Part shown: positions 10,122-31,033 of the stretch, piece after piece
Layout: each line of letters begins with the position of its first letter
Position numbering within the stretch: position 1 is the first letter of the stretch
Virus record (IMG/VR): IMGVR_UViG_2728369554_000009
Span: 1 to 40,186 of that record
Length of the DNA: 40,186 bases
Direction: 5' to 3' (one strand)
From: a virus
Taxonomy: Duplodnaviria; Heunggongvirae; Uroviricota; Caudoviricetes
Position numbers and translations under genes: made by a program
The notes under the pieces: model-generated
Database searches by the model: none
What the model was told of the DNA's origin: nothing
Seen by the model: the letters and a program-made list of their open reading frames with translations, nothing else

Positions 10122-10452
10122 ATCAGCAGCAGAGCGCAAAGCCGCTCAGAGAGCCAGACAAGCTGCATCTGGTGTGCGTAAGCTGGAGATTGTGCTTGAT
10201 GCTCAGGAAATTGAAATGCTTGAGCGGAACTGCGCCGCCCGGCGCCCTGGTCGCGATCCCTATGAAATGGCCGAGTACATCGCGCTGCTGATCCGCCAGG
10301 ATGATGCACGTGTGCGCGGGCGTATAAAATCGATCAGCAGAAAACTTTGCGGTAAGTGCGGCGAGAGAGTTCCCGTTAATTCATGCCCGTGTAATGGTGA
10401 CTCGCAATGCTGGGTGACTAAAGGCTGGCATGAAACGAAATTAATAGTGTGA
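10114..10452 (+). CDS. Hypothetical Cys-rich protein (possible zinc-ribbon regulator upstream of terminase genes)
   Basis: ATG 10114 after AAAGGTAAA; C-terminal CGKCGERVPVNSCPCNGDSQC; stop codon embedded in GTGACATGTCAC palindrome. Confidence 0.5.
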   Translation: MAKSAAERKAAQRARQAASGVRKLEIVLDAQEIEMLERNCAARRPGRDPYEMAEYIALLIRQDDARVRGRIKSISRKLCGKCGERVPVNSCPCNGDSQCWVTKGWHETKLIV

Positions 10453-10460
10453 CATGTCAC
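10449..10460. repeat. 12-bp perfect palindrome GTGACATGTCAC (copy 1)
   Basis: Overlaps stop codon of 10114-10452 gene; ~40 bp upstream of terminator 10502-10528. Confidence 0.8.
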
Positions 10461-10501
10461 GAGTAGATTATGCATGATGAATTTGATGGGTTTTGAATAC
10501 T

Positions 10502-10528
10502 GCCGCCAACTATGGCGGCTTTATTTTG
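10502..10528 (+). terminator. Intrinsic terminator between early region and terS
   Basis: GCCGCC-AACTAT-GGCGGC hairpin followed by TTTATTTT. Confidence 0.7.
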
Positions 10529-10538
10529 CATGGTACTA

Positions 10539-10553
10539 TTACCACAACGGTAA
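10539..10553. promoter_or_regulatory. Operator-like palindrome TTACC-N5-GGTAA upstream of terS
   Basis: TTACCACAACGGTAA; imperfect TTACCACGGTGGTTA at 10557-10571 overlaps terS start. Confidence 0.5.
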
Positions 10554-10570
10554 CTATTACCACGGTGGTT

Positions 10571-11167
10571 ATGATGCCTGCTGAACCTAAAACCTATAAA
10601 CGCAAATCAACGCAATTTAAGCCACTAACAGCAATGCAGGAGGCTTATTGCCAGTCATACATCAAAACGCCTGAAAACCAGACTCAGGCAGCGATTAACG
10701 CAGGATTCTCCCCAAATACAGCGGCAGTTAAAGCCAGTGTCATGATGCGCGATGAACGCATTCAAAAACGGATTGCCGAGTTGATGGAGGAGCGCAACAA
10801 ACGAATGCGCGTCAGTGCTGATTACGTTCTCATGCGCCTGGTGGAGATCGACCAGATGGACGTGATCGACATCCTCAACGACGATGGGAGCCTTAAGCCA
10901 ATCCGCGAGTGGCCGAAAATCTGGCGCACTACGCTTAGCGGCTTTGATCTGTCATCGACCATCATGAACATGAACGAGGATTCGATAGAGACAATCCTCA
11001 AAAAAATTAAATGGCCTGACAAGGTGAAGAACCTCGAACTGATTGGTAAGCACGTCGACGTCAAAGCATTCAAAGAACGCCTGGATGTTAATGTGAATGT
11101 GACAATTGCTGATCGCATAGCAGCAGCCAGGAAGCGACTCAAAGAACGTCAGGATGGTAATCAGTGA
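10571..11167 (+). CDS. terS: Terminase small subunit
   Basis: AYCQSYIKTPENQTQAAINAGFSPNTAAVKASVMMRDERIQKRI resembles Terminase_2-type small subunits; immediately upstream of and overlapping terL. Confidence 0.75.
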   Translation: MMPAEPKTYKRKSTQFKPLTAMQEAYCQSYIKTPENQTQAAINAGFSPNTAAVKASVMMRDERIQKRIAELMEERNKRMRVSADYVLMRLVEIDQMDVIDILNDDGSLKPIREWPKIWRTTLSGFDLSSTIMNMNEDSIETILKKIKWPDKVKNLELIGKHVDVKAFKERLDVNVNVTIADRIAAARKRLKERQDGNQ

Positions 11168-12639
11168 CAGATACAGTGTTATCTCCTGAAGAGCAGTTGA
11201 TCGAGGATATTGCAGGGTTTACTCACGATCCGCTTGGTTATGCCCTCTATGCGTTCCCGTGGGGGGAAGAGGGGACTGAACTGGCACATGCTACTGGCCC
11301 ACGTCAGTGGCAGGCTGATGCGTTCCGAGAGATACGTGATCACCTGCAGAATCCAGAGACGCGCTATCAGCCGCTTATGCTGGCACGCGCTTCTGGTCAC
11401 GGTATTGGTAAATCCGCATTCATCTCAATGCTGATCAACTGGGGCATGTCCACTTGCGAGGATTGTAAGGTCGTGGTGACCGCCAACACCGACAACCAGC
11501 TACGAACGAAGACCTGGCCGGAAATTATCAAGTGGTCGAACCTTGCTATCACGGAAGACTGGTTTACCTGTACCGCTACCGCGATGTACAGCAATGACCC
11601 TGGGCACGACAAGCGGTGGCGTGCTGACGCAATACCCTGGTCTGAGCACAACACTGAGGCGTTCGCCGGACTACACAACGAGCGCAAACGCATCATCGTG
11701 GTGTTTGATGAAGCGTCGAACATTGCGGATCTGGTGTGGGAAGTTGCTGAGGGTGCGCTTACGGACGAAGACACTGAGATTATCTGGGTGGCGTTCGGAA
11801 ACCCGACGCGTAATACCGGACGTTTCCGTGAATGTTTCCGCAAGTATAAACACCGCTGGAAAACTGCGCAGATTGACAGTCGGACGGTGGAAGGTACCAA
11901 CAAACAGCAGTTGCAGAAATGGGTTGATGACTACGGGGAAGACAGCGACTTCGTTAAAATCCGTGTGCGTGGCATATTCCCTGATGCATCTGAATTGCAG
12001 TTTATCCCTACCGGTCTTACTGACGAGGCAATGAAACGGGTGGTAACCGCTGCGCAGGTTGCACATGCTCCGGTGATAATCGGCGTTGACCCGGCATACT
12101 CCGGCGTTGATGACGCTGTGATATACCTGCGGCAGGGGCTACACAGTAAGGTGCTGTGGACTGGCAACAAGACTACCGACGATCTGATTATGGCGAAGCG
12201 TATCGCTGACTTTGAAGACCAGTATCAGGCTGACGCGGTGTTCATCGACTTCGGTTACGGAACCGGTTTGAAGTCAATCGGTGACGGCTGGGGTCGTACA
12301 TGGCAACTTGTTCCGTTCGGTGGCGCGTCTACTGACCCGCAGATGCTTAACAAGCGTGGGGAGATGTTCAACTCATGTAAGACATGGCTGAGGCTGGGCG
12401 GCATGCTGGATGACCAGGAAACTGCAGACGACCTGTCGGCGGCAGAGTACAAAGTTCGCGTGGACGGTAAAATCGTTATCGAACCGAAGGAGGATATCAA
12501 GGAGCGGCTTGGGCGTTCGCCGGGTAAAGGCGATGCGCTACTGCTGACGTTTGCGTTCCCTGTGTCGAAGCGTCTGCGAATTCCCGGTCAGCAGAACCAG
12601 CAAGGCAAGGCCATCACAGATTACGATCCCTATGCTTAA
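11164..12639 (+). CDS. terL: Terminase large subunit
   Basis: 491 aa; Walker A-like ARASGHGIGKS and Walker B-like IIVVFDEAS; GTG start overlapping terS stop. Confidence 0.92.
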   Translation: MTDTVLSPEEQLIEDIAGFTHDPLGYALYAFPWGEEGTELAHATGPRQWQADAFREIRDHLQNPETRYQPLMLARASGHGIGKSAFISMLINWGMSTCEDCKVVVTANTDNQLRTKTWPEIIKWSNLAITEDWFTCTATAMYSNDPGHDKRWRADAIPWSEHNTEAFAGLHNERKRIIVVFDEASNIADLVWEVAEGALTDEDTEIIWVAFGNPTRNTGRFRECFRKYKHRWKTAQIDSRTVEGTNKQQLQKWVDDYGEDSDFVKIRVRGIFPDASELQFIPTGLTDEAMKRVVTAAQVAHAPVIIGVDPAYSGVDDAVIYLRQGLHSKVLWTGNKTTDDLIMAKRIADFEDQYQADAVFIDFGYGTGLKSIGDGWGRTWQLVPFGGASTDPQMLNKRGEMFNSCKTWLRLGGMLDDQETADDLSAAEYKVRVDGKIVIEPKEDIKERLGRSPGKGDALLLTFAFPVSKRLRIPGQQNQQGKAITDYDPYA

Positions 12640-12688
12640 TCCGCTGGTGGGGATAATATCGTTGATATCCTCTGGTGAGGATAAAACA

Positions 12689-12714
12689 AAGCCAGCTCAT
12701 AGGCTGGCTGTTTG
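12689..12714. terminator. Bidirectional intrinsic terminator after terL / after minus-strand moron
   Basis: GCCAGC-TCATAG-GCTGGC hairpin flanked by A-run and T-rich run. Confidence 0.6.
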
Positions 12715-12725
12715 TGACATGTCAC
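12714..12725. repeat. 12-bp perfect palindrome GTGACATGTCAC (copy 2)
   Basis: Abuts bidirectional terminator 12689-12714 between terL and the minus-strand moron. Confidence 0.8.
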
Positions 12726-12729
12726 GGTG

Positions 12730-13062
12730 TTATTTCGGTAGATTGTGTTTGGCATTCGACTCGTCTATCACGTAACGCATTGCAGTTCGACCGAGATTAC
12801 CAGGATCTTCATGCAGACTCACTCGTGCCTTTAGGAGCACACATTCAGCCTTGACATAGTTTGCTGGAATTATTCCTACCTCGGCATTTTTAAATGCCTC
12901 CTTCACCGCCTCACCGTTGTACTGACCGCCAAGCAACTCTGTACATGTCAGGTTGTTATGGATAATTGCAAGGAGATCTTTAATCTCTTCACGCAGGTTT
13001 ACAATCGCCATCGCGGCATTGATAGCTGCGGCATAGCGCTCAGCTGCAGTCTTCTCTTTCAT
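12730..13062 (-). CDS. Hypothetical moron protein (opposite strand to packaging/structural genes)
   Basis: ATG 13062 (MKEKTAAERYAAAINAAMAIVNLREE...) after AAGGTG; own bidirectional terminator downstream; ORF-track start at 13158 less likely (runs through a terminator hairpin). Confidence 0.5.
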   Translation of the reverse strand: MKEKTAAERYAAAINAAMAIVNLREEIKDLLAIIHNNLTCTELLGGQYNGEAVKEAFKNAEVGIIPANYVKAECVLLKARVSLHEDPGNLGRTAMRYVIDESNAKHNLPK

Positions 13063-13073
13063 GATTTTCACCT

Positions 13074-13099
13074 TAAAAAAATGCCCGGACGAACCGGGC
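13074..13099 (-). terminator. Intrinsic terminator (minus orientation) immediately upstream of moron gene
   Basis: GCCCGG-ACGAA-CCGGGC hairpin followed on minus strand by T8; sits between a short hydrophobic ORF and the moron SD. Confidence 0.6.
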
Positions 13100-13803
13100 G
13101 AATGATCAACGGAGTGCCTTCCTTGGCGGGTGATGCAGGGTTTACAGCGCAACGTCATCGGAATGGCGTTCTGCTGTAAAAAGGGCGGTGGTCAGAAGAA
13201 GGAGAACTGCCACCGCCAAAGCTACACGCATTGCCTGGTACTGCCGTATCACGGTCCTAACGTGATTGGGTTGTGGTGGCCGGTGCTGATCTCCGGCTTG
13301 AAATATGCTCAGTGTTAGCTGCCACTCTCTCAAGAGGATATGCGTCATGATTTTCACTGAGTTTGTTGGGTAACCCTGACTTCCGGCTATTCACGCAGCT
13401 TGTCTTCCAACTCAGGCTTATGCCTTACCCATTCCCCCACGTTCACGGGGTGCGCATCAGCCTGCGCATTCACCACAACGGAAAGAGCACTGACTTCGAG
13501 CAGACCTTGGGCCCAGGAACGACGATCAATCTCAATGCTCTTACCTGTTGCATCCTCGTCTCTTCCGAGGTGTCACACCTGATCGCCGGGATGGTGAATC
13601 CCCGTGCGCGGAATAAAACCGCTCGACTTGCACATTCCGGCTACCTGGTTCGTTTGCCCGAGCAAGGGAGGGTGCCCCTTAAACGTATCCAGACCGCTAT
13701 CGGCGCATGTGCCATACGCCGTACTGCTCAAAATAAAAGCTCACTCCACCTGTTCAATTTAACGACAAGCCAGTCAGGTTAGTAACCGGAATGAACTCTT
13801 TGG

Positions 13804-13818
13804 TTACCTGAAAGGTAA
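13804..13818. promoter_or_regulatory. Operator-like palindrome TTACC-N5-GGTAA upstream of portal operon
   Basis: TTACCTGAAAGGTAA ~90 bp upstream of 13909 gene. Confidence 0.5.
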
Positions 13819-13908
13819 TAATTTGTGCGTTAAATGTCAACTACCTACGATAAATAAATCATATGTGGTTAAATTGGTAATAATTTAATTGCGTACGGAG
13901 TCATTGAT

Positions 13909-14115
13909 ATGTGCATGGGTAGCTCACCATCAGTGCCTGCAACACCAGAAGTTCAGGCAGCACCACAGGAGCAGGATGCCGCCGTTGTTGATGCCCGCGA
14001 CGAAGAAACTCGTCGCCGTCGCGCTGCTGCTGGTCGTAGTTCTACGCTGCTTACCGGTTCTCAGGGTGACACATCAACCGCTAATACCAGCGGTAAAACG
14101 CTGCTTGGTCAGTAA
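13909..14115 (+). CDS. Small hypothetical protein upstream of portal
   Basis: 68 aa; translation-initiation region ACGGAGTCATTGATATG nearly identical to that of the portal gene. Confidence 0.4.
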   Translation: MCMGSSPSVPATPEVQAAPQEQDAAVVDARDEETRRRRAAAGRSSTLLTGSQGDTSTANTSGKTLLGQ

Positions 14116-14129
14116 CCGGAGTCATTGAA

Positions 14130-15809
14130 ATGGCGGAAACAACTAAAGAGCGATTGAACAAACAGTTCGCACAACTTGAAAGCGAGCGTCAGTCGTTCGA
14201 GCCGCACTGGCGCGAGTTGAGTGATTACATCAACCCGCGTGGTTCCCGCTTTCTGACTTCTGAGGTCAACCGTAACGATCGACGCAATACACGCATTATT
14301 GATTCGACCGGGACTATGGCGGCGCGCACTCTCGCCAGCGGCATGATGTCAGGCATCACAAGCCCCGCGCGTCCGTGGTTTCGCCTGGCTACGCCAGATC
14401 CTGAAATGATGGATTATGGCCCTGTTAAGTTGTGGCTTGAGGCGGTGCAGAACCGCATGAACGATATGTTCAATAAGTCGAATCTCTATCAGTCGCTGCC
14501 GCAGTTATACGGAAGCCTCGGCACATACAGCACTGGTGCAATGGCAGTGCTGGAGGATGACGAGGACATCATTCGCACAATGCCATTCCCGATAGGCAGT
14601 TACTACCTGGCTAACTCACCTCGTGGCAGTGTGGACACCTGTTTTCGCAAGTTCTCTATGACTGTTCGTCAGCTTGTTCAGGAGTTCGGGCTAAATAACG
14701 TCAGCGAATCCGTAAAAAGCATGTGGGAAAGCGGCACCTACGAGAAGTGGATTGAAGTGATGCATTCGGTTTACCCGAACATTGACCGCGATACATCGAA
14801 GCTGGATAGCAAGAACAAGCCATTCAAATCGGTTTATTACGAGGTTGGTGGCGATAACGACAAGTTGTTGCGTGAGTCCGGATTCGATGAGTTTCCAATT
14901 ATGGCTCCGAGCTGGGAAGTTAACGGCGAAGATGTTTATGGATCATCATGCCCGGGTATGCTGGCGCTTGGACCTGTTAAGGCATTGCAGCTTCTCCAGA
15001 AGCGCAAGTCGCAGTTGATTGATAAAGCCACCAATCCGCCGATGGTTGCTCCGACTTCCCTCAAGAATCAGCGTGCCTCCCTTCTTCCTGGCGACATCAC
15101 GTATATCGATCAGATTACTGGTCAGGATGGTTTCAGGCCTGCTTATCTGGTTAACCCCAGTACAGCAGATTTGGTGGCAGACATTCAGGACACCCGTCAA
15201 ATCATTAACAGCGCCTACTTTGTCGATCTGTTCATGATGTTGCAGAACATCAATACCCGCTCGATGCCTGTTGAAGCGGTGATCGAAATGAAAGAAGAAA
15301 AACTTCTGATGTTGGGGCCGGTTCTGGAGCGTCTGAACGACGAATGTCTTAATCCTCTCATTGACCGCGCTTTCTCGATGATGGTGCGTAAAAACATGCT
15401 GCCGCCACCGCCTGACGCGATGGAAGGTATGCCCCTGAAGGTCGAATACATTTCCGTCATGGCTCAGGCGCAGAAGTCTATCGGCCTGTCCAGTCTGGCG
15501 TCCACGGTTAACTTCATTGGTCAACTTGCGCAAGCGAAACCAGAAGCTCTCGACAAACTCAACGTTGATCAGGCGATCGATGCATTCGCTGATATGTCCG
15601 GAGTGTCTCCAACCGTCATTGTTCCGCAGGAACAGGTTGAGCAGGCTCGCCAGCAACGGGCACAGCAACAACAGCAGCAACAAATGATGGCGATGGGGAT
15701 GGCGGCGGCACAGGGTGCCAAGACGCTAAGCGAAGCTAAAACTTCGGATCCGAGTGTTTTGTCAGCTATGGCGAATGCAGTTAGTGGTCAGGGTGGGCAA
15801 TCACAATGA
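14130..15809 (+). CDS. Portal (head-to-tail connector) protein, T7-like
   Basis: 559 aa; downstream of terL; Q-rich C-terminus QQRAQQQQQQQMMAMGMAAAQGA resembles the T7 gp8 tail (recalled from memory). Confidence 0.88.
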   Translation: MAETTKERLNKQFAQLESERQSFEPHWRELSDYINPRGSRFLTSEVNRNDRRNTRIIDSTGTMAARTLASGMMSGITSPARPWFRLATPDPEMMDYGPVKLWLEAVQNRMNDMFNKSNLYQSLPQLYGSLGTYSTGAMAVLEDDEDIIRTMPFPIGSYYLANSPRGSVDTCFRKFSMTVRQLVQEFGLNNVSESVKSMWESGTYEKWIEVMHSVYPNIDRDTSKLDSKNKPFKSVYYEVGGDNDKLLRESGFDEFPIMAPSWEVNGEDVYGSSCPGMLALGPVKALQLLQKRKSQLIDKATNPPMVAPTSLKNQRASLLPGDITYIDQITGQDGFRPAYLVNPSTADLVADIQDTRQIINSAYFVDLFMMLQNINTRSMPVEAVIEMKEEKLLMLGPVLERLNDECLNPLIDRAFSMMVRKNMLPPPPDAMEGMPLKVEYISVMAQAQKSIGLSSLASTVNFIGQLAQAKPEALDKLNVDQAIDAFADMSGVSPTVIVPQEQVEQARQQRAQQQQQQQMMAMGMAAAQGAKTLSEAKTSDPSVLSAMANAVSGQGGQSQ

Positions 15810-16102
15810 CAGATTACGAAGACGATCAACTGAAAGAAGAAAACGCCCGTAAGCAACGTGACATGGCACAGCGTGAAATTGATGACATTTGCTTTGTCAT
15901 GAGCAGTGAACAGGGGCGTCGCGTTGTCTGGTCGGTGCTGGAGAAAGGCCGTGTGTTTTCCGCTATCTCACCGATGGACGCTATGGCAATGGCATTTAAT
16001 GAGGGGCAACGCAATCTGGCGCTGGAACTGTTTCAGCGCGTTATGGCGCATTGCCCTGAACAGTATTTGAAGATGGCCAAAGAGGCCAGTGAACAGGAGT
16101 GA
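15806..16102 (+). CDS. Hypothetical head-assembly protein
   Basis: 98 aa, overlaps portal stop; between portal and scaffold. Confidence 0.5.
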   Translation: MTDYEDDQLKEENARKQRDMAQREIDDICFVMSSEQGRRVVWSVLEKGRVFSAISPMDAMAMAFNEGQRNLALELFQRVMAHCPEQYLKMAKEASEQE

Positions 16103-16104
16103 TC

Positions 16105-16800
16105 ATGAATTTATTTGAGCGTTTGCTGTATCGCCGTCTTTGCAATGAGCAACCAGTCGATGGTGGAGCAGCTCCGGCTGCGTCAGAACCGTCAGCGCCT
16201 GCAGGTGATAACCCTGCTCCAGTTGGTGATCCATCACAACAGGAAGGTGATAAGCCACAACCTGTTGCTGATGGCGATAAACCTGATGATGAAAAAAAAT
16301 CTGAAAACGATAAGCAGGGTGAAAAAAAGGACGGCGATAAACCAGAGGGTGCGCCGGAGAAGTACGAATTTCATGCTGCCGAAGGCGTAGAGCTGGATAC
16401 AGAAGCGTTGAAGGAATTCGAGCCGGTGGCGCGAGAACTAAACCTGACCAACGAGCAAGCGCAAAAGCTGGTTGATGCTTATCCGAAGATTCTGGCAGGT
16501 GTGCAGCAGCGCCAGGCAGAAGCCTGGCAGAAAACAACCGAGCAGTGGGCTGCTGATGTAAAAGCTGACAAAGAAATTGGTGGCGACAAGTTGATTTCTA
16601 ACCTTAGCGCCGCACAGCGTGCGCTTGACCAGTTCGGGACACCCGAGCTCAAAGAATATCTGAACACCACCGGGCTGGGTAATCACCCTGATCTGGTCAA
16701 AACGTTCGTGAAAATCGGAAAGGCGATGTCTGAAGATGGCATGGTCACCGGTGGTAATGAAGGCCAGCGTAGTGCGGCCGAAGTGCTCTATGGCAAATAA
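16105..16800 (+). CDS. Scaffolding protein
   Basis: Acidic, low-complexity, helix-prone protein directly upstream of major capsid gene; ATG 16105 after CAGGAG. Confidence 0.7.
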   Translation: MNLFERLLYRRLCNEQPVDGGAAPAASEPSAPAGDNPAPVGDPSQQEGDKPQPVADGDKPDDEKKSENDKQGEKKDGDKPEGAPEKYEFHAAEGVELDTEALKEFEPVARELNLTNEQAQKLVDAYPKILAGVQQRQAEAWQKTTEQWAADVKADKEIGGDKLISNLSAAQRALDQFGTPELKEYLNTTGLGNHPDLVKTFVKIGKAMSEDGMVTGGNEGQRSAAEVLYGK

Positions 16801-16814
16801 GAGAGGAAATGACA

Positions 16815-17801
16815 ATGGCTGTTAAAGGCTTAACTGCGCTAACGCTGGCTGACTGGGGTAAGCGCGTCGATCCAAACGGGAAAGTCGATAAGATTATCGA
16901 GCTTCTCAGTCAAACCAACCCAATCCTTCAGGATATGCCTTTTGTTGAAGGAAACCTTCCTACCGGACACCGAACCACCATTCGTTCTGGTTTGCCTTCC
17001 GCTACCTGGCGTTTGCTGAACTATGGCGTACAACCGAGCAAATCAACAACGGTGCAGGTCACTGATTCCATTGGCATGCTGGAAACCTATGCTGAAGTCG
17101 ATAAGTCTCTGGCTGATCTGAACGGTAATACTGCCGAATTCCGCCTGTCTGAAGACCGAGCATTTATTGAAGCGATGAATCAGGCGATGGCGCAGACGCT
17201 GTTTTACGGTGATTCCAGCGTTAACCCTCAGCAGTTTATGGGACTGTCCTCCCGCTATTCCAGCCTGTCTGCGGGTAATGCTCAGAACATCATTGATGCT
17301 GGTGGCACGGGTACAGATAACACTTCAATCTGGTTAGTGGTGTGGGGCGAAAACACCGTGCATGGCATCTTCCCGAAAGGGAAGAAGGCTGGCATCCAGA
17401 TGGAAGATAAAGGCCAGGTGACACTGGAAGATGCTAATGGCGGCAAGTACGAAGGTTATCGTACCCATTATAAGTGGGACAACGGGCTGACATTGCGTGA
17501 CTGGCGCTATGTTGTTCGCATTGCAAACATCGATGTCAGCAATCTTGACGATCCTTCTACTGCTGCGAATATCGCAAAACTGATGATTCGTGCCCTTCAT
17601 CGAATCCCAAATCGTGGGATGGGACGTCCTATTTTCTACATGAACAGAACCATTAACGAAGTGCTTGACCTGCAATCTCTGGAGAAGAGTTCTCTGGCGA
17701 TCAGCGTGAAAGAGACAGAAGGCGAATGGTGGACAGAACTTCGTGGTGTGCCGATTCGCGAAACTGACGCACTTCTGGAAACAGAAGCCCGCGTGGTGTA
17801 A
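16815..17801 (+). CDS. Major capsid protein (HK97-fold type)
   Basis: ~329 aa after scaffold gene; ATG 16815 6 nt after GAGAGGAA; size and position typical of a podovirus major capsid protein. Confidence 0.8.
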   Translation: MAVKGLTALTLADWGKRVDPNGKVDKIIELLSQTNPILQDMPFVEGNLPTGHRTTIRSGLPSATWRLLNYGVQPSKSTTVQVTDSIGMLETYAEVDKSLADLNGNTAEFRLSEDRAFIEAMNQAMAQTLFYGDSSVNPQQFMGLSSRYSSLSAGNAQNIIDAGGTGTDNTSIWLVVWGENTVHGIFPKGKKAGIQMEDKGQVTLEDANGGKYEGYRTHYKWDNGLTLRDWRYVVRIANIDVSNLDDPSTAANIAKLMIRALHRIPNRGMGRPIFYMNRTINEVLDLQSLEKSSLAISVKETEGEWWTELRGVPIRETDALLETEARVV

Positions 17802-17852
17802 CGCCTGTTATTAACCTGTGGGCCGCAACAGGCCCACTAATGGAGAAAGAAG

Positions 17853-18290: not shown

Positions 18291-18300
18291 GGTGATATCG

Positions 18301-18636: not shown

Positions 18637-18653
18637 GCCTCGCGAATCAGACA

Positions 18654-18674: not shown

Positions 18675-18686
18675 GCAGGAGTGTAT

Positions 18687-23125: not shown

Positions 23126-25833
23126 TGCCTGTTGTTCCTACTACATCCGGACGCCAGGTGCAAAGTCGTGGTGTGCAAACCGGTGGTTTTCAAACCTTCG
23201 ATGTTCCTCAGGCAGGTCAGGTGCTGGCGAATGTCGCAGATCAGTATGCGGTGGCATATGGTGAAGCCAGGCAGAAAGCGAATGTTGCATTGTCTCAGGA
23301 TGCCATCCTTCAGCTTAATCAGCGCAGCAATGAACGTCTTTATAACCCTCAAACCGGTTTTTATGCACAACAAGGCAAAAATGCGATTGGTAAGGGGCAA
23401 GAGTACATATCTGGATTTGATCAGGATGTGGAAGAAATAGCTGCTTCATTGACTGATGAAGCAGCAAGAAATATGTTTTTGCAACAAGCCAGAACACAGA
23501 AAATTCAGTTCAGTACTGGAGTTCTCAGACATGAGATAGGGCAGACAAATGCCTATGAAGATGAGCAATATCAGGCAACGAGAAAATTATGGATACAAAA
23601 TGAAGCGGATGCCTGGAATGACCCGCAAACTGCCACTTTAGCCAGAAATTCCAGAATGGTAGCCATTGCCAGATATGGAGCAGCCAGGGGATGGTCACAA
23701 GAACGCATTCTGGAAGAAATAGAAAGTGATGATCGCAGTGCCACAGAAATGCGGGCGAAGAATTATGCCGCTGCTAATCCGGAAGGATGGTTAAATGGTC
23801 AGTTTCAGAAAAATGATTCTGGAGGCATGGACATGCGTGCCATACGCCTTGTTGAATCAGGTGATCGTCATTTTAATCCTGATGGTAGTATTCTTGAAGG
23901 ACCGAAAACATCTTCTGGAGAGAGGGCCCAGGGGAAATACCAGTTAATGCCGGGCACAGGGAAAGAACTGGCGGCCAAACGTGGCGTTGAATACAACCCT
24001 ACGGACGAACAACAGCATGAAATGCTCGCCAGTGACTATGTAAATCAACTGTATGGTAAGTACGGTTCCGAAATATTGACCGGAGCAGCATATAACTGGG
24101 GGATGGGTAACGTGGATAAACTGATCGCCAAAGTCGGTGATCCACGTAAAGGTGAAATATCAGAAGAAGAATTTATCCGAAATCTTCCATCAGAAACACA
24201 AGGGTGGCTTTCCCGATATAGAAAAAATAAAACTGGAATGGATCCGCTGACTATTTATCAAATAGATAACCTTGCTAATAGTCAGATAGAAAAGCAAAGG
24301 AAGTTAATATTAGAACAGCTTGAGCCAGCTATTAATAACACCATGGCCCAGCTATATAACGGTGAGGTTCCAGATTATATACCGGCTCAGGAGACCATCA
24401 TCAGGGGGTATGGAAAAAACGCAGATAAAATAATCAATCAACTGGATATAGCGATTGATAACGCGAGAATATTCCAGACAATTCAGTATTTGCCTCCTTC
24501 TCAGCAGCAAGAAGAAATGCAGAAAGTGAAGCCTGAGGTTAACGATCCTCACTATGCGTTAAAACTCGATGCTTACGGAAAATTGTCTGCATTGCTTCAG
24601 AGATCAAATGAAGCAATTCAGGCGCAACGGGATTCACGCAGATTTAATGAGGCGCTGACAATAGGTGAAAAATTAGACCCAAGCAACAAGTCAATGCAGA
24701 AAGCTGCTGATTACACAGAAATGGCGCAGAACTTTCGTATTAATGATGCCTCCACTCATGATGGGGTTGTTCGGCTTGTGGCTCAGACTGGCATAATGCC
24801 TTCGCAGGTCATCACGCAGCTTTCAGCAGTATCCCGATCCAGCAATCAGGAAGTGGTTAAAAATGCGGCGGAACTGTTTAGTCGGTTATATGAAACAGAC
24901 AATGCATCTATTGGAAATATGCCGAAGGATATGCAGGGTTTTTATCTGACTGTTAAGCAACTAACTGATGCAGGGATGTCTTCAGATGCTGCTATTGTGG
25001 AAGCGCAGAGTAAGACATACAACCAGACAGATGCACTAAGGGCGCAGCTCTCATCTGTTCAGAGTACAAGAGAATACAAAAAAGAGCGTGACAGCGCAGC
25101 CAATTCTGCTGTCAGTAATATGACTCACTGGCTTCGCTGGGATCCGTCTGCGGATGACCAGACACCGGAAGCAGCGCTCTTTCGCAATGACTATCAGATG
25201 CTGTATGACGTTAACTATCGCCTTGCTGGTGGTAACGCTGACGTAGCGAAGCAAATGACCAACCAGCAGATAGCCCGCACTTGGAGTATCAGCGAGGTCA
25301 ACGGGGAAGCACAGTTTATGAAATATGCACCGGAGGCGCTTTATCAATATGGGCCGTCAGGCTGGATTGCAGCGCAATGGAAGGCTGAAAAAGAAAAAAT
25401 CATGTATGGCGATGACTTACATAAACCGGCTCCTTCATTTAACCGACCTTCAACTGAGGCTGGTGCATTGGGACTGAATAAGCCACGCTCACTGGTTGGA
25501 GGTGAGTTGATTCTCGTTCCTGACTTATCAACTCCGAGAGATAAGCTTTATTCAGTTGTGATCAGAACAAAAGATAAAGATGGTATTACGAGGGATGATT
25601 TATTTTATGACAAGCATGGAAGACAGATGCGCTGGGGGCCATCACTAGAAGATTGGGAACCTTATAAGAAAATGCAGCAGGAACGGGAGCAGCACGAGCA
25701 GGAAGAAATTATGCGTGGACAGGCTATACGAAACTTCAAAGACAAGCATCGCGCTCTGGATGAGCAGTATCAGCGCCTGCATAACGAACGTATGGACAAA
25801 TTTAAAGATTACTTTTCGTGGGGATCTAAATAA
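23125..25833 (+). CDS. Internal core protein with soluble lytic transglycosylase (SLT) domain
   Basis: 902 aa; ERAQGKYQLMPGTGKELAAKRGVEYNP...AYNWGMGNV matches the SLT catalytic region (E...Q.MP.T...Y.WG). Confidence 0.75.
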   Translation: MPVVPTTSGRQVQSRGVQTGGFQTFDVPQAGQVLANVADQYAVAYGEARQKANVALSQDAILQLNQRSNERLYNPQTGFYAQQGKNAIGKGQEYISGFDQDVEEIAASLTDEAARNMFLQQARTQKIQFSTGVLRHEIGQTNAYEDEQYQATRKLWIQNEADAWNDPQTATLARNSRMVAIARYGAARGWSQERILEEIESDDRSATEMRAKNYAAANPEGWLNGQFQKNDSGGMDMRAIRLVESGDRHFNPDGSILEGPKTSSGERAQGKYQLMPGTGKELAAKRGVEYNPTDEQQHEMLASDYVNQLYGKYGSEILTGAAYNWGMGNVDKLIAKVGDPRKGEISEEEFIRNLPSETQGWLSRYRKNKTGMDPLTIYQIDNLANSQIEKQRKLILEQLEPAINNTMAQLYNGEVPDYIPAQETIIRGYGKNADKIINQLDIAIDNARIFQTIQYLPPSQQQEEMQKVKPEVNDPHYALKLDAYGKLSALLQRSNEAIQAQRDSRRFNEALTIGEKLDPSNKSMQKAADYTEMAQNFRINDASTHDGVVRLVAQTGIMPSQVITQLSAVSRSSNQEVVKNAAELFSRLYETDNASIGNMPKDMQGFYLTVKQLTDAGMSSDAAIVEAQSKTYNQTDALRAQLSSVQSTREYKKERDSAANSAVSNMTHWLRWDPSADDQTPEAALFRNDYQMLYDVNYRLAGGNADVAKQMTNQQIARTWSISEVNGEAQFMKYAPEALYQYGPSGWIAAQWKAEKEKIMYGDDLHKPAPSFNRPSTEAGALGLNKPRSLVGGELILVPDLSTPRDKLYSVVIRTKDKDGITRDDLFYDKHGRQMRWGPSLEDWEPYKKMQQEREQHEQEEIMRGQAIRNFKDKHRALDEQYQRLHNERMDKFKDYFSWGSK

Positions 25834-28800
25834 TGCCGTTCTATCCTGTATCTGAATCAAACAATAACGGATTTATTTCTGCTGGTCTCGCCATTCCTGA
25901 ACCTGATGAACAGAGTTTTGATGTGCATCCGCCAGAAGGTAAGAACCCTGAACCTCGTCCCAAAGAGCCTTCATTGCTTGCCGCAGCAATACGACAGAAC
26001 AATATTCTGGCTGGTTTTTTCCGTCCTGCCAGACAGTTTGAACCGGTCGAAGGTTATAACCCATATGCTGATAAAAATGAGTTGCACGGTTATGAATACT
26101 GGGGGGCGAAATTTGCAGATTCCCGATCGCCAGAGGAAACGGCGTGGATTAAGCAGCAGATAGATGATGAAAATGAAGACAGACGTTTATTGTCTGATGC
26201 TGGCGTAGTTGGAACTCTTGCCAGTATTGCTGCAGGAATGGATCCGGTTACCGTTGCGTCAATGTTTATCCCCGGTGCTCAAGGAGGGGCACTGGCGCGT
26301 ATTGGCTCACAGATTGCGATTGGTGCTGCCGGTACAGCATTAAGCGAGGTTGTGCTGAATAATCAGCAAATAACACGCTCATGGGGTGAAAGTGCCGCTC
26401 ACGTTGCAGCGGGTGCGATGATGAGCGGCGTGTTTGCCAGTGCTGGTGTTGCGCTTTCGCCATCCGTCCGGGCTGCAGCCACGCGTGAGGTTGCTGATGC
26501 TCTTGATAATATGAGCATTACATCAGCGACTGACAGGGCTGCCGCTTCGCTTTCTGATGGTGGTAGTGTTGGTGCTATGAAAATTGATACAGCGACTCTG
26601 GATGATTTAACCCCTGTTTCCGGTGGGTGGGTTGGAAAGGCTGCATGGAAAGCAGGGAGCTATCTTACTCCTTTGACAAGGTTAATGGAGTCTCCGTCCA
26701 AGACAGTGCGAAAAACAACGCTGGAGTTAGCCGAAAATAATTTCACCCTTAAAGGAAATGAAAGGGGGATTGAAACACCGGTAGCTGTAGAAACCCGTAC
26801 ACGTGGATGGCAGCGTGAAGAAGCTGCTGTTGTTGTCGGAAATAAACAGGCATACGCAAAGTATAAAGCTGATGGTGGTGACATGAGTTTTGATTCATTT
26901 CGTCAGCAGGTTGGGAATGCTATGCGAAGCGGTGATGTGCATGCTAATCCTGTTGTTCAGGAAACGGCGCAGGCGATGCGAACTGTATTAAATCGGGTGA
27001 AAGTTGAAATGCAAAAGCTTGGTTTATTGCCGCCAGATGAAGAACTGAAAGCATTAGGCCAGGCAAGCTATTTCCCACGCATATATAAAGTTGGAAAAAT
27101 AATCAGTGAACGCGATAAATTTCGACGTATTTTGGTTGACTGGTGGTCGAGAGGAAATAAAACACTGGATCCTGAGGATGCTGAAATTGCAGCGGATATC
27201 GTAATTAATAAAATTACTGGTGCTAAGGTTCCACAGGATTTTGTCAGCGTATTTTCTGTAAAAGCCGCAGGTAGTACGAAAGAAAGAACATTAAATGTTC
27301 CTGATAGTCTTATCGGTGATTATCTTGAAAGTGATGTGAATTACGTGCTGCAACGTCATATCCGTGAAGCGGCAGCAGAAATTGAGTTGATGAGAACATT
27401 TGGCAAACGAACTATGACTGAGCGTCTGCAATTAATTGAGGACGAATATGACAGTCTGTTACGGGAAGTGCCTGAAAAAATAAAGGCGAAATATGACGAA
27501 AGTGTGGCAAATCTGAAAGCACGTTATGAGAGCAATGGTGAAGTTGTTCCTCAGGGTAAACTCGATTCATTAATGCGAAAGTACGAAAAGGAATTACGGA
27601 AAGAACAGTCCAGACTTTCAAAATCAAGAGCAAATGATCTCAGAGACATAACAGCATTACGCGATCGTCTTGTTGGTACATATGGGATGCCTGATGATCC
27701 GTCTTCGTTTTTTGTTCGTGCTGGCGCTTTTCTGCGGGATGTGAACTTCACGACCAAACTCGGTGGAATGACAGTATCAGCTATTCCAGATCTGGCCAGA
27801 GGGGTTATGGTTAATGGTTTCCGTAACACCATGAAAGGCTATGCTTCTCAGATATCCCAATCACCGGCATTTAAGGCCAGCAAAGAAGATATGTTGAAGA
27901 TGGGGATTGGATTGGAAGCTGTACTACATTCACGTTCTCGTGCAATTGGTGATCTTGTTGACAGTTCTTCCAGGACAACAGCAGTCGAAGCAGGAATGGA
28001 GCGAATTACTGATGCCTTCGGCAAGCTGACACTCATGGATCGATTTAATGACATAAACAAATCCATGAACGGAATGCTCACGTCAGACGGTATTTTGTCC
28101 GGTGCGTTTTCTGCACGTCGCATGGCAAAACTCGGTATCAACGACAATATGGCTGCGCGTATTCGCAGTGAGTTCGAGAAACATGGTGAGGTAATTGATG
28201 GATGGCACATTGGTAACTTTGATAAATGGGACGATCAGTACGTTGCCGGAGTATTCCAGTCAGCGGTTCTGAAAGACGTTAATAACACTATCATCACCCC
28301 CGGTATTGGTGACACACCTTTATGGGCGAGTACTCCAATGGGGCGAACGATATTTCAGTTTAAATCATTCACAACGGCTTCATACAACCGTGCGCTACTT
28401 GGTGGGTTACAGGAAGGAACTGCGCAATTTTATTATGGCACTGCATTTCAGATTGCTCTTGGCTCACTGGTCTATGCGCTTAAAGAAGCATCGAAAGGGA
28501 AAAATGTTGACTGGTCACCAGAGAAGCTGGTGCTTGAGGGTATAGATAGATCCGGTATTCTTGGGCCATTGATGGAATATAACAACATGGCTGAAAAGGC
28601 GACTGGTGGTGCTGTTGGGCTGGGGGCTTTATTTGGCACTGGCACACAGTCCAGGTATGCCAGTCGTGGATTCGTAGGATCTCTATTCGGACCGTCATTT
28701 GGTCTTGCGGATAGCATCATTGATGTGACCTCAGGAGTGTTGAATGGTGATGCCGGTGATCGTATTGTGCATAATGTCCGAACCCTGATACCCGGCAATA

Positions 28801-28853
28801 ACCTGTTCTGGATTGCGCCACTAATAAACCAAGTGGATCCGGTGATGCGTTAA
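25833..28853 (+). CDS. Large internal core / ejection protein (gp16 position)
   Basis: 1006 aa; last of the coupled run of large virion proteins. Confidence 0.65.
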   Translation: MPFYPVSESNNNGFISAGLAIPEPDEQSFDVHPPEGKNPEPRPKEPSLLAAAIRQNNILAGFFRPARQFEPVEGYNPYADKNELHGYEYWGAKFADSRSPEETAWIKQQIDDENEDRRLLSDAGVVGTLASIAAGMDPVTVASMFIPGAQGGALARIGSQIAIGAAGTALSEVVLNNQQITRSWGESAAHVAAGAMMSGVFASAGVALSPSVRAAATREVADALDNMSITSATDRAAASLSDGGSVGAMKIDTATLDDLTPVSGGWVGKAAWKAGSYLTPLTRLMESPSKTVRKTTLELAENNFTLKGNERGIETPVAVETRTRGWQREEAAVVVGNKQAYAKYKADGGDMSFDSFRQQVGNAMRSGDVHANPVVQETAQAMRTVLNRVKVEMQKLGLLPPDEELKALGQASYFPRIYKVGKIISERDKFRRILVDWWSRGNKTLDPEDAEIAADIVINKITGAKVPQDFVSVFSVKAAGSTKERTLNVPDSLIGDYLESDVNYVLQRHIREAAAEIELMRTFGKRTMTERLQLIEDEYDSLLREVPEKIKAKYDESVANLKARYESNGEVVPQGKLDSLMRKYEKELRKEQSRLSKSRANDLRDITALRDRLVGTYGMPDDPSSFFVRAGAFLRDVNFTTKLGGMTVSAIPDLARGVMVNGFRNTMKGYASQISQSPAFKASKEDMLKMGIGLEAVLHSRSRAIGDLVDSSSRTTAVEAGMERITDAFGKLTLMDRFNDINKSMNGMLTSDGILSGAFSARRMAKLGINDNMAARIRSEFEKHGEVIDGWHIGNFDKWDDQYVAGVFQSAVLKDVNNTIITPGIGDTPLWASTPMGRTIFQFKSFTTASYNRALLGGLQEGTAQFYYGTAFQIALGSLVYALKEASKGKNVDWSPEKLVLEGIDRSGILGPLMEYNNMAEKATGGAVGLGALFGTGTQSRYASRGFVGSLFGPSFGLADSIIDVTSGVLNGDAGDRIVHNVRTLIPGNNLFWIAPLINQVDPVMR

Positions 28854-28874
28854 TCAATATTTATTGGAGTTCTT

Positions 28875-29402
28875 TCAATGGCTGTTTATGGCTTCTAAAG
28901 AAGCTTCTGCACTTATCGGCAAAGCAATAGTATCCTTGTTAGATGTGCTATTGCTTTCCAGAACTATGGAAATCCAATCCTCTTGGTTTTCATTAATTGT
29001 GCTGACAGCCATGATAGCATTCAAATCATTTTTATATATTTCTGATCGAATAAGACCTTTCCTGAATAATTTAGTTAAGTTTTCAGCTATCGACATCGCA
29101 CGAATGCTAACTTTACTAAGCTCAATTGCGTCACTACCTGCGACTTTGGCGTGTTGAGAAAGAGCCATCAAAGCTATATGTGAAAATGTTTCTTCTTTTG
29201 AAAAACCGTTACTTAAAGACATGAGTGATACACCAGCTCCGTATGGGGTGAGTTTATATCCTGATACATTCAGTGCATGCTCTACAAAGGTAAGATCATC
29301 AGTTGTAGAAACATGCATATCGTTACTTTTTTGTTTTTTTGCAATAAATAAAAAAACAAAATTAATAATCACGATGCCGACGATGATTAAGAAAACTTCC
29401 AT
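28875..29402 (-). CDS. Membrane-anchored hypothetical moron protein
   Basis: 175 aa; N-terminal TM helix MEVFLIIVGIVIINFVFLFIA; gene is AT-rich relative to neighbours; SD GAGGAA; operator-like palindrome 29423-29437 just upstream. Confidence 0.55.
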   Translation of the reverse strand: MEVFLIIVGIVIINFVFLFIAKKQKSNDMHVSTTDDLTFVEHALNVSGYKLTPYGAGVSLMSLSNGFSKEETFSHIALMALSQHAKVAGSDAIELSKVSIRAMSIAENLTKLFRKGLIRSEIYKNDLNAIMAVSTINENQEDWISIVLESNSTSNKDTIALPISAEASLEAINSH

Positions 29403-29422
29403 TGCTTTTCCTCACAATAACA

Positions 29423-29437
29423 TTACCTTAAAGGTAA
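29423..29437. promoter_or_regulatory. Operator-like palindrome TTACC-N5-GGTAA
   Basis: TTACCTTAAAGGTAA ~20 bp upstream of membrane-protein moron start (29402). Confidence 0.5.
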
Positions 29438-29462
29438 TATTTTGTGCTAATGTGATCAAGTG

Positions 29463-29861
29463 TTAAGTGTATACCTCCTGCTGTTCAGTCGTGATTTTAC
29501 CCGGCAACACCTTTTTAGCTTTGCGCGGGTTAACCACATGGCCTTTAGTCCAGTACTCGTAGAGCACATCATCACACTCTTCCTGATACTGGATTACCTT
29601 ATCGCGGATTTCAGGGCGGACTTTGTTTGGACTGATGCTGTTCAACCAAGCTGCCAATTTTCGTAAAGCCATACAAATCATGGCTTGCACCCCTCCGGCA
29701 GAAGGTATGGTGATTTCCACCATACCCTTCGAGAAGCGTTGAGAAATCTTCTTATGTTGAGATTTCCAGTCTAGACCCATTCCCTCAACGATAGGTTTCA
29801 TTGGGGTGTACGGTTCGCCGTTGTGATTGACAACATAAAGTTCTACGCCGTGGAATGGCAC
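29463..29861 (-). CDS. Hypothetical phage protein (possibly regulatory)
   Basis: 132-aa protein-like ORF; start ambiguous (GTG 29861 or ATG 29801); divergent from antirepressor leader. Confidence 0.45.
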   Translation of the reverse strand: MPFHGVELYVVNHNGEPYTPMKPIVEGMGLDWKSQHKKISQRFSKGMVEITIPSAGGVQAMICMALRKLAAWLNSISPNKVRPEIRDKVIQYQEECDDVLYEYWTKGHVVNPRKAKKVLPGKITTEQQEVYT

Positions 29862-30008
29862 GTTGATAGTAGTGACAAGTTTGAAACATCGCTGGTTGTA
29901 AGCCAGCAGATGCTCGTTATTTTACATCGCGGTACAATTTCTCGCTGGTGGCTCTTTTATACACCTTAACCAAATATGGTTGATTTTGATATTTATCTTC
30001 GTCTATTA

Positions 30009-30023
30009 TTACCTTTTCGGTAA
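30009..30023. promoter_or_regulatory. Operator-like palindrome TTACC-N5-GGTAA at head of Bro-N antirepressor leader
   Basis: TTACCTTTTCGGTAA, followed by TTTACA-N17-CATAGT promoter-like hexamers. Confidence 0.5.
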
Positions 30024-30103
30024 ATTTACATCGCACTCCTCTTGTGCCATAGTAATCGGGCACTGGCAAAATCCAGTGCCGGGATTGGTCTCCCGGATTA
30101 CTA
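30009..30103. repeat. Left arm of perfect 95-bp inverted repeat (antirepressor leader)
   Basis: Reverse complement of 33103-33197 with no mismatches by eye; includes palindrome 30009-30023, -35-like TTTACA and two hairpins. Confidence 0.85.
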
Positions 30104-30290
30104 CAGAGGCACATATGCCGCATAAGCGGTTTTTTTATGTGTAAAGCGCACCTATTCTATGGTGGGCTGTGTGGGGGCACCGAAAGGTGCGCCGGGTTCC
30201 TTTGTAGCCGGTAAGACCAACTCTGCACAGTTCACCACCATCTGATTGGTCTCAGCGGTGGTGATTAACCTAACTACAAAGGTGATCGCC
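30024..30290 (+). ncRNA. Structured 5' leader / candidate sRNA upstream of Bro-N antirepressor gene
   Basis: Hairpins at 30059-30080, 30079-30096, terminator hairpin+T7 at 30118-30136, GAAA-tetraloop hairpin 30177-30190, 8-bp-stem hairpin 30232-30264; mirrored with compensatory changes in the AntA leader. Confidence 0.45.
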
Positions 30291-30983
30291 ATGAATACCA
30301 AACCTTCCATCTTTTCCTTTGAGTCATCCTGCCAGATCCGTATGTTCATGATTGACGGAGAACCTTGGTTTGTCACCAAAGATGTGTGCAATGCTTTGAA
30401 TATTGATGTTACACAAGCGAGAAAACTTGATAAAAAAGGCTGGAACAAAAAGGGGCTGTATTCAATACAGACCCCTGGTGGAATACAAGAACTATCCATC
30501 GTTTCAGAATCAGGTCTCTACATCCTTATTCTGCGTTGCAAAGAGGCAATGACTGAGGGAACGAGAGCATTCAGATTTCTTGAATGGGTTACAGGTGAGG
30601 TTCTTCCTCAGATCCGCCGCACCGGAAGTTACATTAAAAACTCGCTCCCGCAGGAAGAACGCATAAAGATGGTTGCCGACCAGGTAGCCAACGCCACGGC
30701 GTCAGCAGTAATGCAGGCGATGAAGATAGAGAACAAAACCTACAGTGCCCCGCTGAAGCCCGGCTACCGCAGCCTGATTCATTCTCCGTCTGGTGTTCTC
30801 GGCCTGACGGAGAACTCACTGCTGATGAATCTGCTGAACCAGTTACAGGAAGACGGGCACGATGTATCGGGCGCGGCGGCGGAGCTGACCACCATGTTCT
30901 GCTACATCGTCGGTGTGAGCAAATGCCTGCGTGATATCCAGACGCACGCGGAATACATCAACGACAAGGCAGGGTTCTTCTGA
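30291..30983 (+). CDS. Antirepressor-family protein: Bro-N domain fused to shared C-terminal (KilAC-like) domain
   Basis: N-terminus FSFESSCQIRMFMIDGEPWFVTKDVCNAL...ESGLYILILR fits Bro-N; C-terminal ~78 aa near-identical to C-terminus of 32255-32911 gene; ATG 30291 after AAAGGTGA. Confidence 0.7.
   Translation: MNTKPSIFSFESSCQIRMFMIDGEPWFVTKDVCNALNIDVTQARKLDKKGWNKKGLYSIQTPGGIQELSIVSESGLYILILRCKEAMTEGTRAFRFLEWVTGEVLPQIRRTGSYIKNSLPQEERIKMVADQVANATASAVMQAMKIENKTYSAPLKPGYRSLIHSPSGVLGLTENSLLMNLLNQLQEDGHDVSGAAAELTTMFCYIVGVSKCLRDIQTHAEYINDKAGFF
30741..30983. repeat. Left copy of ~243-bp inverted repeat encoding the shared antirepressor C-terminal domain
   Basis: Near-identical (a handful of substitutions) to reverse complement of 32255-32497. 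Confidence 0.85.
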
Positions 30984-31021
30984 CAGAACGGCGGCACAGG
31001 GACGTGCAAAACGAAACTAGC

Positions 31022-31033
31022 GTGACATGTCAC
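31022..31033. repeat. 12-bp perfect palindrome GTGACATGTCAC (copy 3)
   Basis: Between Bro-N antirepressor stop and terminator 31034-31058. Confidence 0.8.

Follow-up and report, generated by a model that had tools for sequence, protein, structure and literature searches.

A 12-bp palindrome resembling matS minus one base pair accompanies the small gp49-family gene of temperate phages

The window analysed here is the whole stretch of 40,186 nucleotides of the IMG/VR record IMGVR_UViG_2728369554_000009 (positions 1 to 40,186), a member of Caudoviricetes, which was identified as a phiV10/epsilon15-like (Uetakevirus) prophage. Its last early gene is a small one that encodes a protein of 112 amino acids; the terminase genes terS and terL follow, a minus-strand moron lies beyond terL, and further downstream two convergent antirepressor operons meet. 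The element under study is a perfect 12-bp palindrome, GTGACATGTCAC, hereafter called the dyad, which occurs exactly three times in the window (Table 1). A preliminary description, made from the letters alone, had noticed these three copies, held them to be non-random and placed them at module boundaries, offering a protein-binding site, a recombination hotspot or an RNA 3'-end element as possible roles. The claim of non-randomness is borne out: in 100 dinucleotide-preserving shuffles the mean number of copies was 0.01, and none of the shuffles reached three.

All three copies lie at the 3' ends of transcription units with a terminator adjoining, as the preliminary description had it. Copy 1 covers the stop codon of the last early gene, ahead of terS, and the epsilon15 annotation carries a terminator matching the one that closes this early-right operon. 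Copy 3 stands downstream of a Bro-N antirepressor gene (30246-30983) and directly abuts its terminator, which folds with -16.5 kcal/mol (z = -3.2) when the dyad is included. Copy 2, described earlier as lying after terL beside a bidirectional terminator and a minus-strand moron, is correctly placed, being 5 nt past the hairpin common to both units and 4 nt from the stop codon of the minus-strand gene 12730-13158; a good U-tract is found on the minus strand only. This hairpin was called as a minus-strand terminator here and is given as a plus-strand terminator in the phiV10 annotation. On the minus strand, copy 2 presents stop codon, dyad, hairpin and U-tract in that order. Followed in the direction of each hairpin's U-tract, the sequence of elements is the same at all three copies: stop codon, palindrome, a gap of 0-41 nt, hairpin, U-tract.

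Table 1. Coordinates of the dyad copies, the gp49-family gene, the adjoining terminators and the repressor operators in the window
Feature	Position	Strand	Remarks
Dyad copy 1, GTGACATGTCAC	10449..10460		Includes the TGA stop (10450-10452) of the gp49-family gene
Dyad copy 2, GTGACATGTCAC	12714..12725		Flanked by the terL terminator hairpin and the stop codon of the moron (minus strand)
Dyad copy 3, GTGACATGTCAC	31022..31033		Abuts the terminator where two convergent antirepressor operons meet
gp49-family gene, 112 aa (open reading frame 10111-10452)	10114..10452	+	Last early gene; proposed dyad binder
Intrinsic terminator, end of early-right operon	10502..10527	+	41 nt 3' of copy 1; 7-bp stem with 6 GC pairs, then TTTATTTT
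Hairpin common to terL and moron	12690..12709		Plus strand, weak U-tract TGTTT; minus strand, good U-tract
Intrinsic terminator 3' of copy 3	31034..31061 (hairpin 31034-31051 and T-run)	+	AGGCCGC-TTTC-GCGGCCT, then TGTTTTTAAC
TTACC-N5-GGTAA operators	4966, 5028, 5740, 5788, 6125, 8094, 8156		Sequence match
TTACC-N5-GGTAA operators	10539, 10557 (upstream of terS); 13804 (portal operon)		Sequence match
TTACC-N5-GGTAA operators	29423, 32168; 30009, 33183 (two antirepressor modules); 33563 (tailspike gene)		Sequence match

Within Uetakevirus, the exact 12-mer is found at all three syntenic places in PAS61, epsilon15, ZX5 and SPN1S while the flanks diverge, and such exact syntenic copies span phages of E. 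coli, Salmonella and Enterobacter. In Tyrion all three copies are kept, the first running across the ends of its linear record; copy 1 of phiV10 differs at one base; TL-2011b is without copy 2, and EC.W1-9 carries copy 1 only. Copy 2 is syntenic in phiV10, PAS61, epsilon15, ZX5, SPN1S and Tyrion, and it lies 2.2-2.5 kb downstream of copy 1 in 55 of 80 related viral contigs. Almost all of these contigs (78 of 80) have the exact 12-mer over the stop codon in the register NNG TGA CAT GTC AC. What differs between phages is the gene on the left side of copy 3 and the moron on the right side of copy 2; the unit of palindrome plus hairpin is constant. Among 5426 complete E. coli genomes, 638 (about 12%) contain gp49 together with the copy-1 region and 527 (about 10%) contain the unit of copy 3 plus terminator. 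The flanked copy-1 and copy-3 units occur at a median of one place per genome, always in prophage context. These counts bear only indirectly on the possibility, raised in the preliminary description, of a host-wide repeat, which if REP/BIME-like would have hundreds of chromosomal copies.

A prophage of E. coli BCE049 (L431, NZ_CP042250.1), inserted between yfgI and guaA, is 99.9-100% identical to the window; no dyad was found in the 13.5 kb of host flank read around it. This prophage has a clean 2.8-kb deletion of window positions 30776-33593, which starts within the Bro-N antirepressor gene, stops just short of the tailspike promoter and takes away copy 3, its terminator and the second antirepressor module. 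Because so close a relative has lost it, copy 3 must be dispensable for prophage maintenance.

Beyond Uetakevirus, a scan of viral contigs with a 14-mer returned the palindrome at the stop codon of gp49 homologs of 47-56% identity, on contigs without Uetakevirus terminase genes. An unbiased sample was then provided by 54 loci on one-genome-per-species contigs (about 45 species), chosen only because they carry a gp49 homolog of 46-82% identity; the genera include Pantoea, Erwinia, Serratia, Providencia, Klebsiella, Citrobacter, Pectobacterium, Rahnella and Brenneria. The exact 12-mer lies between -1 and +26 nt from the stop codon of the homolog in 28 of the 54 loci, and a one-mismatch form stands at the gene end in nine more, giving 37 of 54. 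In seven of these nine the mismatch affects the central 2 bp, and the other two (L211 and L239) are at different offsets from the stop. The register NNG TGA CAT GTC AC, with at most one mismatch, is common to 30 loci, and at least one dyad is present in 51.

The arrangement of the half-sites is strict. Over the 1.03 Mb of these 54 loci the exact 12-mer was observed 59 times (0.06 expected) and the general form GTGAC-N2-GTCAC 75 times (1.0 expected), as against one to three occurrences for each of the spacings N0, N1 and N3-N8 and zero to three per spacing for swapped half-sites, where about one each is expected. The next commonest 12-bp palindrome in the same sequence occurs five times. When four sets of loci are pooled (4.55 Mb), the N2 dyad is found 381 times and the N3 dyad three times, with 4.3 expected for each. 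The dyad is thus strictly spaced and under strong purifying selection, and GTGAC-N2-GTCAC can be regarded as a conserved putative protein-binding site in hundreds of temperate phages. Among the three roles offered beforehand, the protein-binding site is the one favoured by the fixed 2-bp spacing, the conserved half-sites and the free centre.

The association extends to more distant phages. The stop codon of N15 gene 46, whose product is 37% identical to gp49, lies inside GTGACTGGTCAC, and N15 has two further dyads, one after gene 33 and one inside repA. Three dyads are present in Vibrio phage K233, whose homolog is 32% identical, and one of these precedes terS by 20 nt; a P2-like Yersinia phage with a distant homolog has a single dyad. 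In a Mu-like phage (L432 10349-10381, Logan SRR8515669) the stop codon itself has been lost (TGA to ACC), and the dyad, GTGACCGGTCAC, is kept in place. The replacement lengthens the protein by 11 residues, and gemA and mor follow the gene immediately in the Mu early region. The gene 3' of the dyad differs from phage to phage, being terS in the window and an excisionase-integrase, dinI or HNH gene elsewhere. Given this variation, gp49, and neither late genes nor module junctions, is the companion of the site; a role in late-gene activation was rejected on the same ground. The earlier idea that a module boundary is the essence of the element is not sustained either, since its constant partner is a single gene and copies occur inside open reading frames in lambdoid relatives. 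Physically and by phylogeny, the dyad is bound up with a single small gene in phages that are unrelated in lifestyle and gene order, of the Uetakevirus, lambdoid, N15-like, Mu-like, P2-like and Vibrio groups.

The product of this gene belongs to PHROG 536, the family of phiV10 p55, epsilon15 gp49 and N15 gp46, and is called gp49 throughout. The PHROG label, "transcriptional regulator", is without experimental basis, and nearly all of the 776 homologous protein clusters are named "hypothetical"; no match to gp49 was found in Pfam, in NCBIfam or among PDB sequences. Nine residues (R8, R13, R43, Y50, E54, L59, C79, C82 and C99) are invariant across three subfamilies. A first structure model had a predicted local distance difference test (pLDDT) score of 60, and a Foldseek search with it returned no match. 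The model built from a deeper alignment (pLDDT 83) has a helix at residues 5-18, an extended segment, helices at 30-42 and 52-74, a Cys knuckle and a helix at 100-107. The predicted architecture comprises an N-terminal basic helix, a core resembling a ribbon-helix-helix fold and a C-terminal Cys4 knuckle. This model finds its best structural matches among ribbon-helix-helix proteins, the MatP-matS complex being one, while a search of BFVD folds returned only a fragment of the same protein; neither the domain nor the structure searches revealed a recombinase or nuclease signature. The gp49 genes sit among accessory early genes, in nin or ea regions, in the Mu semi-essential region or beside att.

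The closest known relative of the phage dyad, which the preliminary description did not name, is matS, reported as GTGACRNYGTCAC (PMC6907758) and, as the E. coli consensus, as GTGACATTGTCAC (PMC8669397), which is contacted by a central ribbon-helix-helix dimer of MatP. Enterobacterales, Pasteurellales and Vibrionales are the only orders in which MatP, matS and MukBEF occur (PMC10945525). All three window copies, like the 381 dyads of related loci, share with matS the inverted half-sites GTGAC and GTCAC, and the phage 12-mer equals GTGAC-ATT-GTCAC minus one central base, with an A/T-rich centre preferred in both. Both systems have few, dispersed sites per replicon; the hosts of gp49-bearing phages are essentially the MatP/MukBEF clade; and the best structural matches of the gp49 model, as noted above, include the MatP-matS complex. 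On the other hand, matS is a 13-bp site with a 3-bp RNY centre, whereas the phage centre is strictly 2 bp and the window contains no N3 site. matS sites are located in the chromosomal Ter region at about three per 100 kb, whereas the dyads are phage-borne, have a density of about one per 13 kb and include one that overlaps the stop codon of the presumed binder itself. Homology between gp49 and MatP was not detectable (no Pfam match; hhalign E = 0.66), and tblastn of MatP against the phage collection gave no match. The N-terminal four-helix bundle and the C-terminal coiled coil of MatP (ZapB and tetramer contacts) are absent from gp49, which has the Cys4 knuckle instead. Because of the 2-bp spacer, the lack of sequence homology and the absence of bundle and coiled coil, we regard the phage pair as matS-like but outside the MatP/matS family. 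A search of the literature library found no paper with the 12-mer and none that links matS or MatP to phage-borne sites, and a widespread phage protein/site pair with a matS-minus-one-base site appears to be previously undescribed.

On balance, we favour the view that the dyad is a dimer-binding site belonging with the gp49-family gene and most likely bound by its product, the two forming a matS-like phage pair. Since the half-sites are the same and the centre is one base pair shorter, this pair is probably orthogonal to the host MatP/matS system. A ribbon-helix-helix dimer with a basic N-terminal helix would bind the dyad, the outer pentamers being fixed and the centre free as in matS, and the difference of one base would separate the phage sites from host MatP. 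Dimers of gp49, made late in the early operon, would occupy a few dispersed sites on the phage chromosome. With one site lying across the stop codon of gp49, protein and site would stay linked through mosaic exchange, and action in cis may be favoured. ParB/parS offers a parallel: ParB is a DNA-organising protein whose palindromic site often lies in or next to its own gene, by which the pair is kept together on transfer. The likeness is one of mechanistic analogy and of a site in or next to the gene of its binder, whereas gp49 has neither a ParB fold nor a CTPase domain, and the site sequences are unrelated.

What the bound protein would do can be suggested only tentatively, and two roles are rated about equally likely. 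One possibility, very slightly ahead of the other and argued by analogy with MatP-matS, in which MatP binds its site and displaces MukBEF, is that binding marks phage DNA against or for a machine of the structural maintenance of chromosomes (SMC) type, such as MukBEF or a relative, or organises the DNA; such a MatP-type role might consist in halting SMC complexes or unloading them, in bridging DNA or in positioning the replicon. The accessory early location and the portability between phage types point to host interaction or DNA organisation rather than to a core circuit regulator. The other possibility, likewise doubtful by itself, is that the bound protein acts as a two-way barrier to RNA polymerase and, with the hairpin, seals the ends of repressor-controlled operons. 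The placement at operon ends beside hairpins would indicate that a bound dimer also blocks RNA polymerase in both directions or, at the very least, can be tolerated; tight binding at such places would be harmless or useful to transcription.

Several observations count against the proposed pairing of gp49 with the dyad. The link between the two is one of association only. In 17 of the 54 homolog loci the dyad is not at the gene end, and in three of them none is found within 20 kb. Copy 3 has been lost from the BCE049 prophage. Lambda and P22 have neither a gp49 homolog nor a dyad, a control that is too small to carry weight. Hairpins of -12 kcal/mol or stronger lie within 45 nt of 27% of dyads and of 9.5% of random positions (p = 0.012), an enrichment that speaks for placement at operon ends but is only moderate, concerns a subset of dyads and is measured against positions that are mostly coding. 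Finally, some copies lie inside open reading frames, always in the frame xGT GAC ATG TCA Cxx (x-D-M-S-x): at codons 2-5 of a Q-like antiterminator and in CII-like, PHROG 2479 and terL-like genes. The copies in Q-like, CII-like and terL-like frames may be selected as DNA sites or could be inherited coding coincidences. A gp49 homolog is also present in at least 20 of the Q-like contigs, judged by shared contig names. The dyad codons are identical in 59 of 61 MRDMSQ (Q-like) genes, from which nothing can be concluded, the genes being close relatives that were retrieved with a pattern containing MRDMSQVL.

The transcriptional setting bears on several alternatives. TTACC-N5-GGTAA, the Uetakevirus repressor operator annotated in epsilon15, occurs 15 times in the window (0.8 expected): before the terS, portal, antirepressor and tailspike units and, for some copies, around the repressor gene. 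The motif marks promoters just 3' of each dyad and terminator, and from the operator positions it follows that all three palindromes stand at the 3' ends of repressor-controlled operons. Because operators precede the terS, portal, antirepressor and tailspike units, the structural and lysis operons appear, from sequence, to be under direct control of the repressor and not of a late activator. The dyad itself is not such an operator: the Rep operator of the epsilon15/SPC32H type is a different sequence, at 15 other places.

Host MatP, or a matS-like host factor, might bind the dyad, with gp49 as a mere neighbour or cofactor and the phage borrowing the Ter-organising system of its host. Identical half-sites, a preferred centre AT that is a sub-string of ATT, and the restriction of dyad phages to hosts of the MatP/MukBEF clade would fit such borrowing. 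MatP would be expected to require a 3-bp centre, however, and the pooled loci show the reverse preference; nor would a host binder explain why the site overlaps the gp49 stop codon so constantly, even in homologs of as little as 35-37% protein identity. We therefore hold this explanation to be unlikely. A further step down in probability is antitermination of the Q/qut kind, in which gp49 would load at the dyad upstream of terminators and allow read-through into terS and onward. The arrangement is suggestive of lambda Q-qut-tR', a regulator gene directly upstream of a presumed DNA site, a terminator and late genes, the regulator being a small protein predicted to bind zinc, and the order of stop codon, dyad and terminator recurs. 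The late operons, on the other hand, have their own repressor-controlled promoters 3' of each terminator. In lambdoid phages gp49 is located in a leftward operon by xis-int or att, in phages that already encode Q, and the canonical terminator at copy 2 faces the moron, where read-through could only yield terL antisense RNA. Moreover, the phage site differs from qut in being a multi-copy dyad that is also found at convergent junctions and inside open reading frames; no conserved promoter and no sigma-pause or -10-like pause element stands at a fixed distance from it, and gp49 has no homology to Q and no Pfam Q-family match.

We give slightly less credence again to a recombination or mobility signal, by which the dyad, with or without the terminator, would be a junction for cassette exchange or part of a small mobile terminator cassette. 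Otherwise collinear phages do differ on one side of copies 2 and 3, up to the dyad or the neighbouring stop codon, and a very similar dyad-plus-hairpin lies between unrelated genes (protease, major head protein) in Serratia prophages. Copy 1 is not a mosaic junction, both of its flanks being conserved, and neither are the copies in stop-codon register or those embedded in reading frames; the divergence at copy 2 starts at the stop codon of the moron, as expected from selection on intact genes; and gp49 bears no recombinase or nuclease signature. The recombination hotspot proposed earlier is thus right about the variable cargo that abuts copies 2 and 3 and leaves the gene linkage and the copies inside reading frames unexplained. 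Least probable, and in our judgement barely credible, is that the dyad is an RNA element (a hairpin or processing site at mRNA 3' ends), a promoter element or a pac/cos site. It lies in 3' untranslated regions by terminators, GTGACA resembles a -35 hexamer, and the phiV10 record begins inside copy 1. By itself, however, the 12-mer folds as weakly as shuffled sequence does (-2.9 to -3.5 kcal/mol, z near 0), non-palindromic centres are tolerated, no Rfam match was found at the dyad sites, and the terminators are separate, neighbouring hairpins; the RNA 3'-end element of the preliminary description was accordingly dropped. GTGACA-18-CATGAT can be read as a promoter at copy 1, but no -10 element follows copies 2 and 3 or the copies in epsilon15, SPN1S or other homologs, and in some homolog loci a terminator begins 11 nt after the dyad, which counts against a promoter. 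The phiV10 record starts where it does because its depositors opened it after the stop codon of the last gene, and the position within copy 1 is merely the first base thereafter; in lambdoid phages the dyad is beside xis-int and not beside the terminase genes.

Other known palindromes were compared and set aside. The core GTGA/TCAC is common to the dyad and to CRP sites, which require TGTGA-N6-TCACA. The preliminary description had already excluded CRP on account of an N4 spacing, rightly, and had written the element in an extended form TGTGA-N4-TCACA; this spacing is correct, whereas the outer bases match on one side only in each copy (T...G, T...G and C...A). The SlmA-binding sequence, GTGAGTACTCAC, is likewise a 12-bp palindrome with GTGA....TCAC. 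It has G, T, A and G at positions 1, 2, 4 and 5. At position 5 SlmA requires the G, and at position 6 it favours a pyrimidine (PMC3020112); the dyad has C at the former and A at the latter. Arc and Mnt of P22 and other phage ribbon-helix-helix repressors use operators that overlap promoters, in contrast to dyads at operon ends or inside genes, and Arc and Mnt are without the extra basic helix and zinc knuckle predicted for gp49.

Further copies and neighbouring features were seen in the window and its relatives. The order of stop codon, palindrome and terminator is found again between protease-like and major head genes in Serratia and Symbiopectobacterium prophages, after a terL-like operon in Samsonia and after N15 gene 33. 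About 40 nt of the Serratia/Symbiopectobacterium unit (L222 15399, L226 15407, L227 18126) are very similar to window positions 12683-12731 on the minus strand, and its flanking genes are unrelated to those at copy 2; either convergence or a mobile terminator cassette common to both could account for this. A one-mismatch copy, GTGACATGGCAC, lies at 15858-15869 of the window, within the small gene that follows the portal gene, where it is read as R-D-M-A-Q. It is kept in all E. coli Uetakeviruses examined, with about 0.09 one-mismatch copies expected by chance, and its frame is the x-D-M-S-x frame of every embedded exact copy in lambdoid relatives. In five unrelated viral contigs (L027, L046, L056, L075 and L113) the 12-mer stands within dense, iteron-like arrays of single GTGAC/GTCAC(G) half-sites, which may mark an origin or packaging region or be the target of another protein that prefers the same half-site. 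A LexA-box-like dyad (TACTGT-N8-ACAGTA) is located just 3' of the gp49 homolog in several non-Uetakevirus loci, with or without the palindrome (L209 about 10380-10410, L218 about 1150-1180, and L222, L226 and L227 about 10350-10375), and its sequence suggests an SOS-controlled gene after the gp49 homolog there.

Two details of the prophage concern its annotation. An isrK small RNA and C4 antisense RNA cassette of the P1/P7 immI type is present in two inverted copies (30060-30242, plus strand; 32961-33146, minus strand), each upstream of an antirepressor-like gene, and the two convergent modules meet at copy 3; in most relatives the minus-strand module is present alone. The longest open reading frame of terS, with a start at 10493 as in the phiV10 annotation, spans the terminator at 10502-10527 and two repressor operators, and the shorter terS annotated in ZX5 and TL-2011b, corresponding to a start at about window position 10574, is a better fit to the regulatory layout.

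If the pairing of gp49 with the dyad is correct, a widespread accessory gene so far named "hypothetical" would gain a cognate DNA site and a testable function, and the 12-mer would serve as a practical marker of the gp49 gene family. Even as a protein barrier at operon ends alone, the pair would represent a new kind of transcription-unit boundary in phage genomes. More speculatively, and with a doubt that we would stress, temperate phages and plasmid-prophages of the MukBEF/MatP clade (Enterobacterales, Vibrionales, Aeromonadales) might carry a miniature MatP/matS, made up of a zinc-containing ribbon-helix-helix protein and of 12-bp sites that lack one base of matS and so are invisible to host MatP; it would stop or unload SMC loop extruders (MukBEF, or SMC-type defence complexes such as Wadjet) on the phage replicon, or position this replicon in the cell. 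The near-identity of the dyad to matS would tie phage biology to MatP/MukBEF and suggests that phages may insulate themselves from, or imitate, the SMC activity of their hosts.

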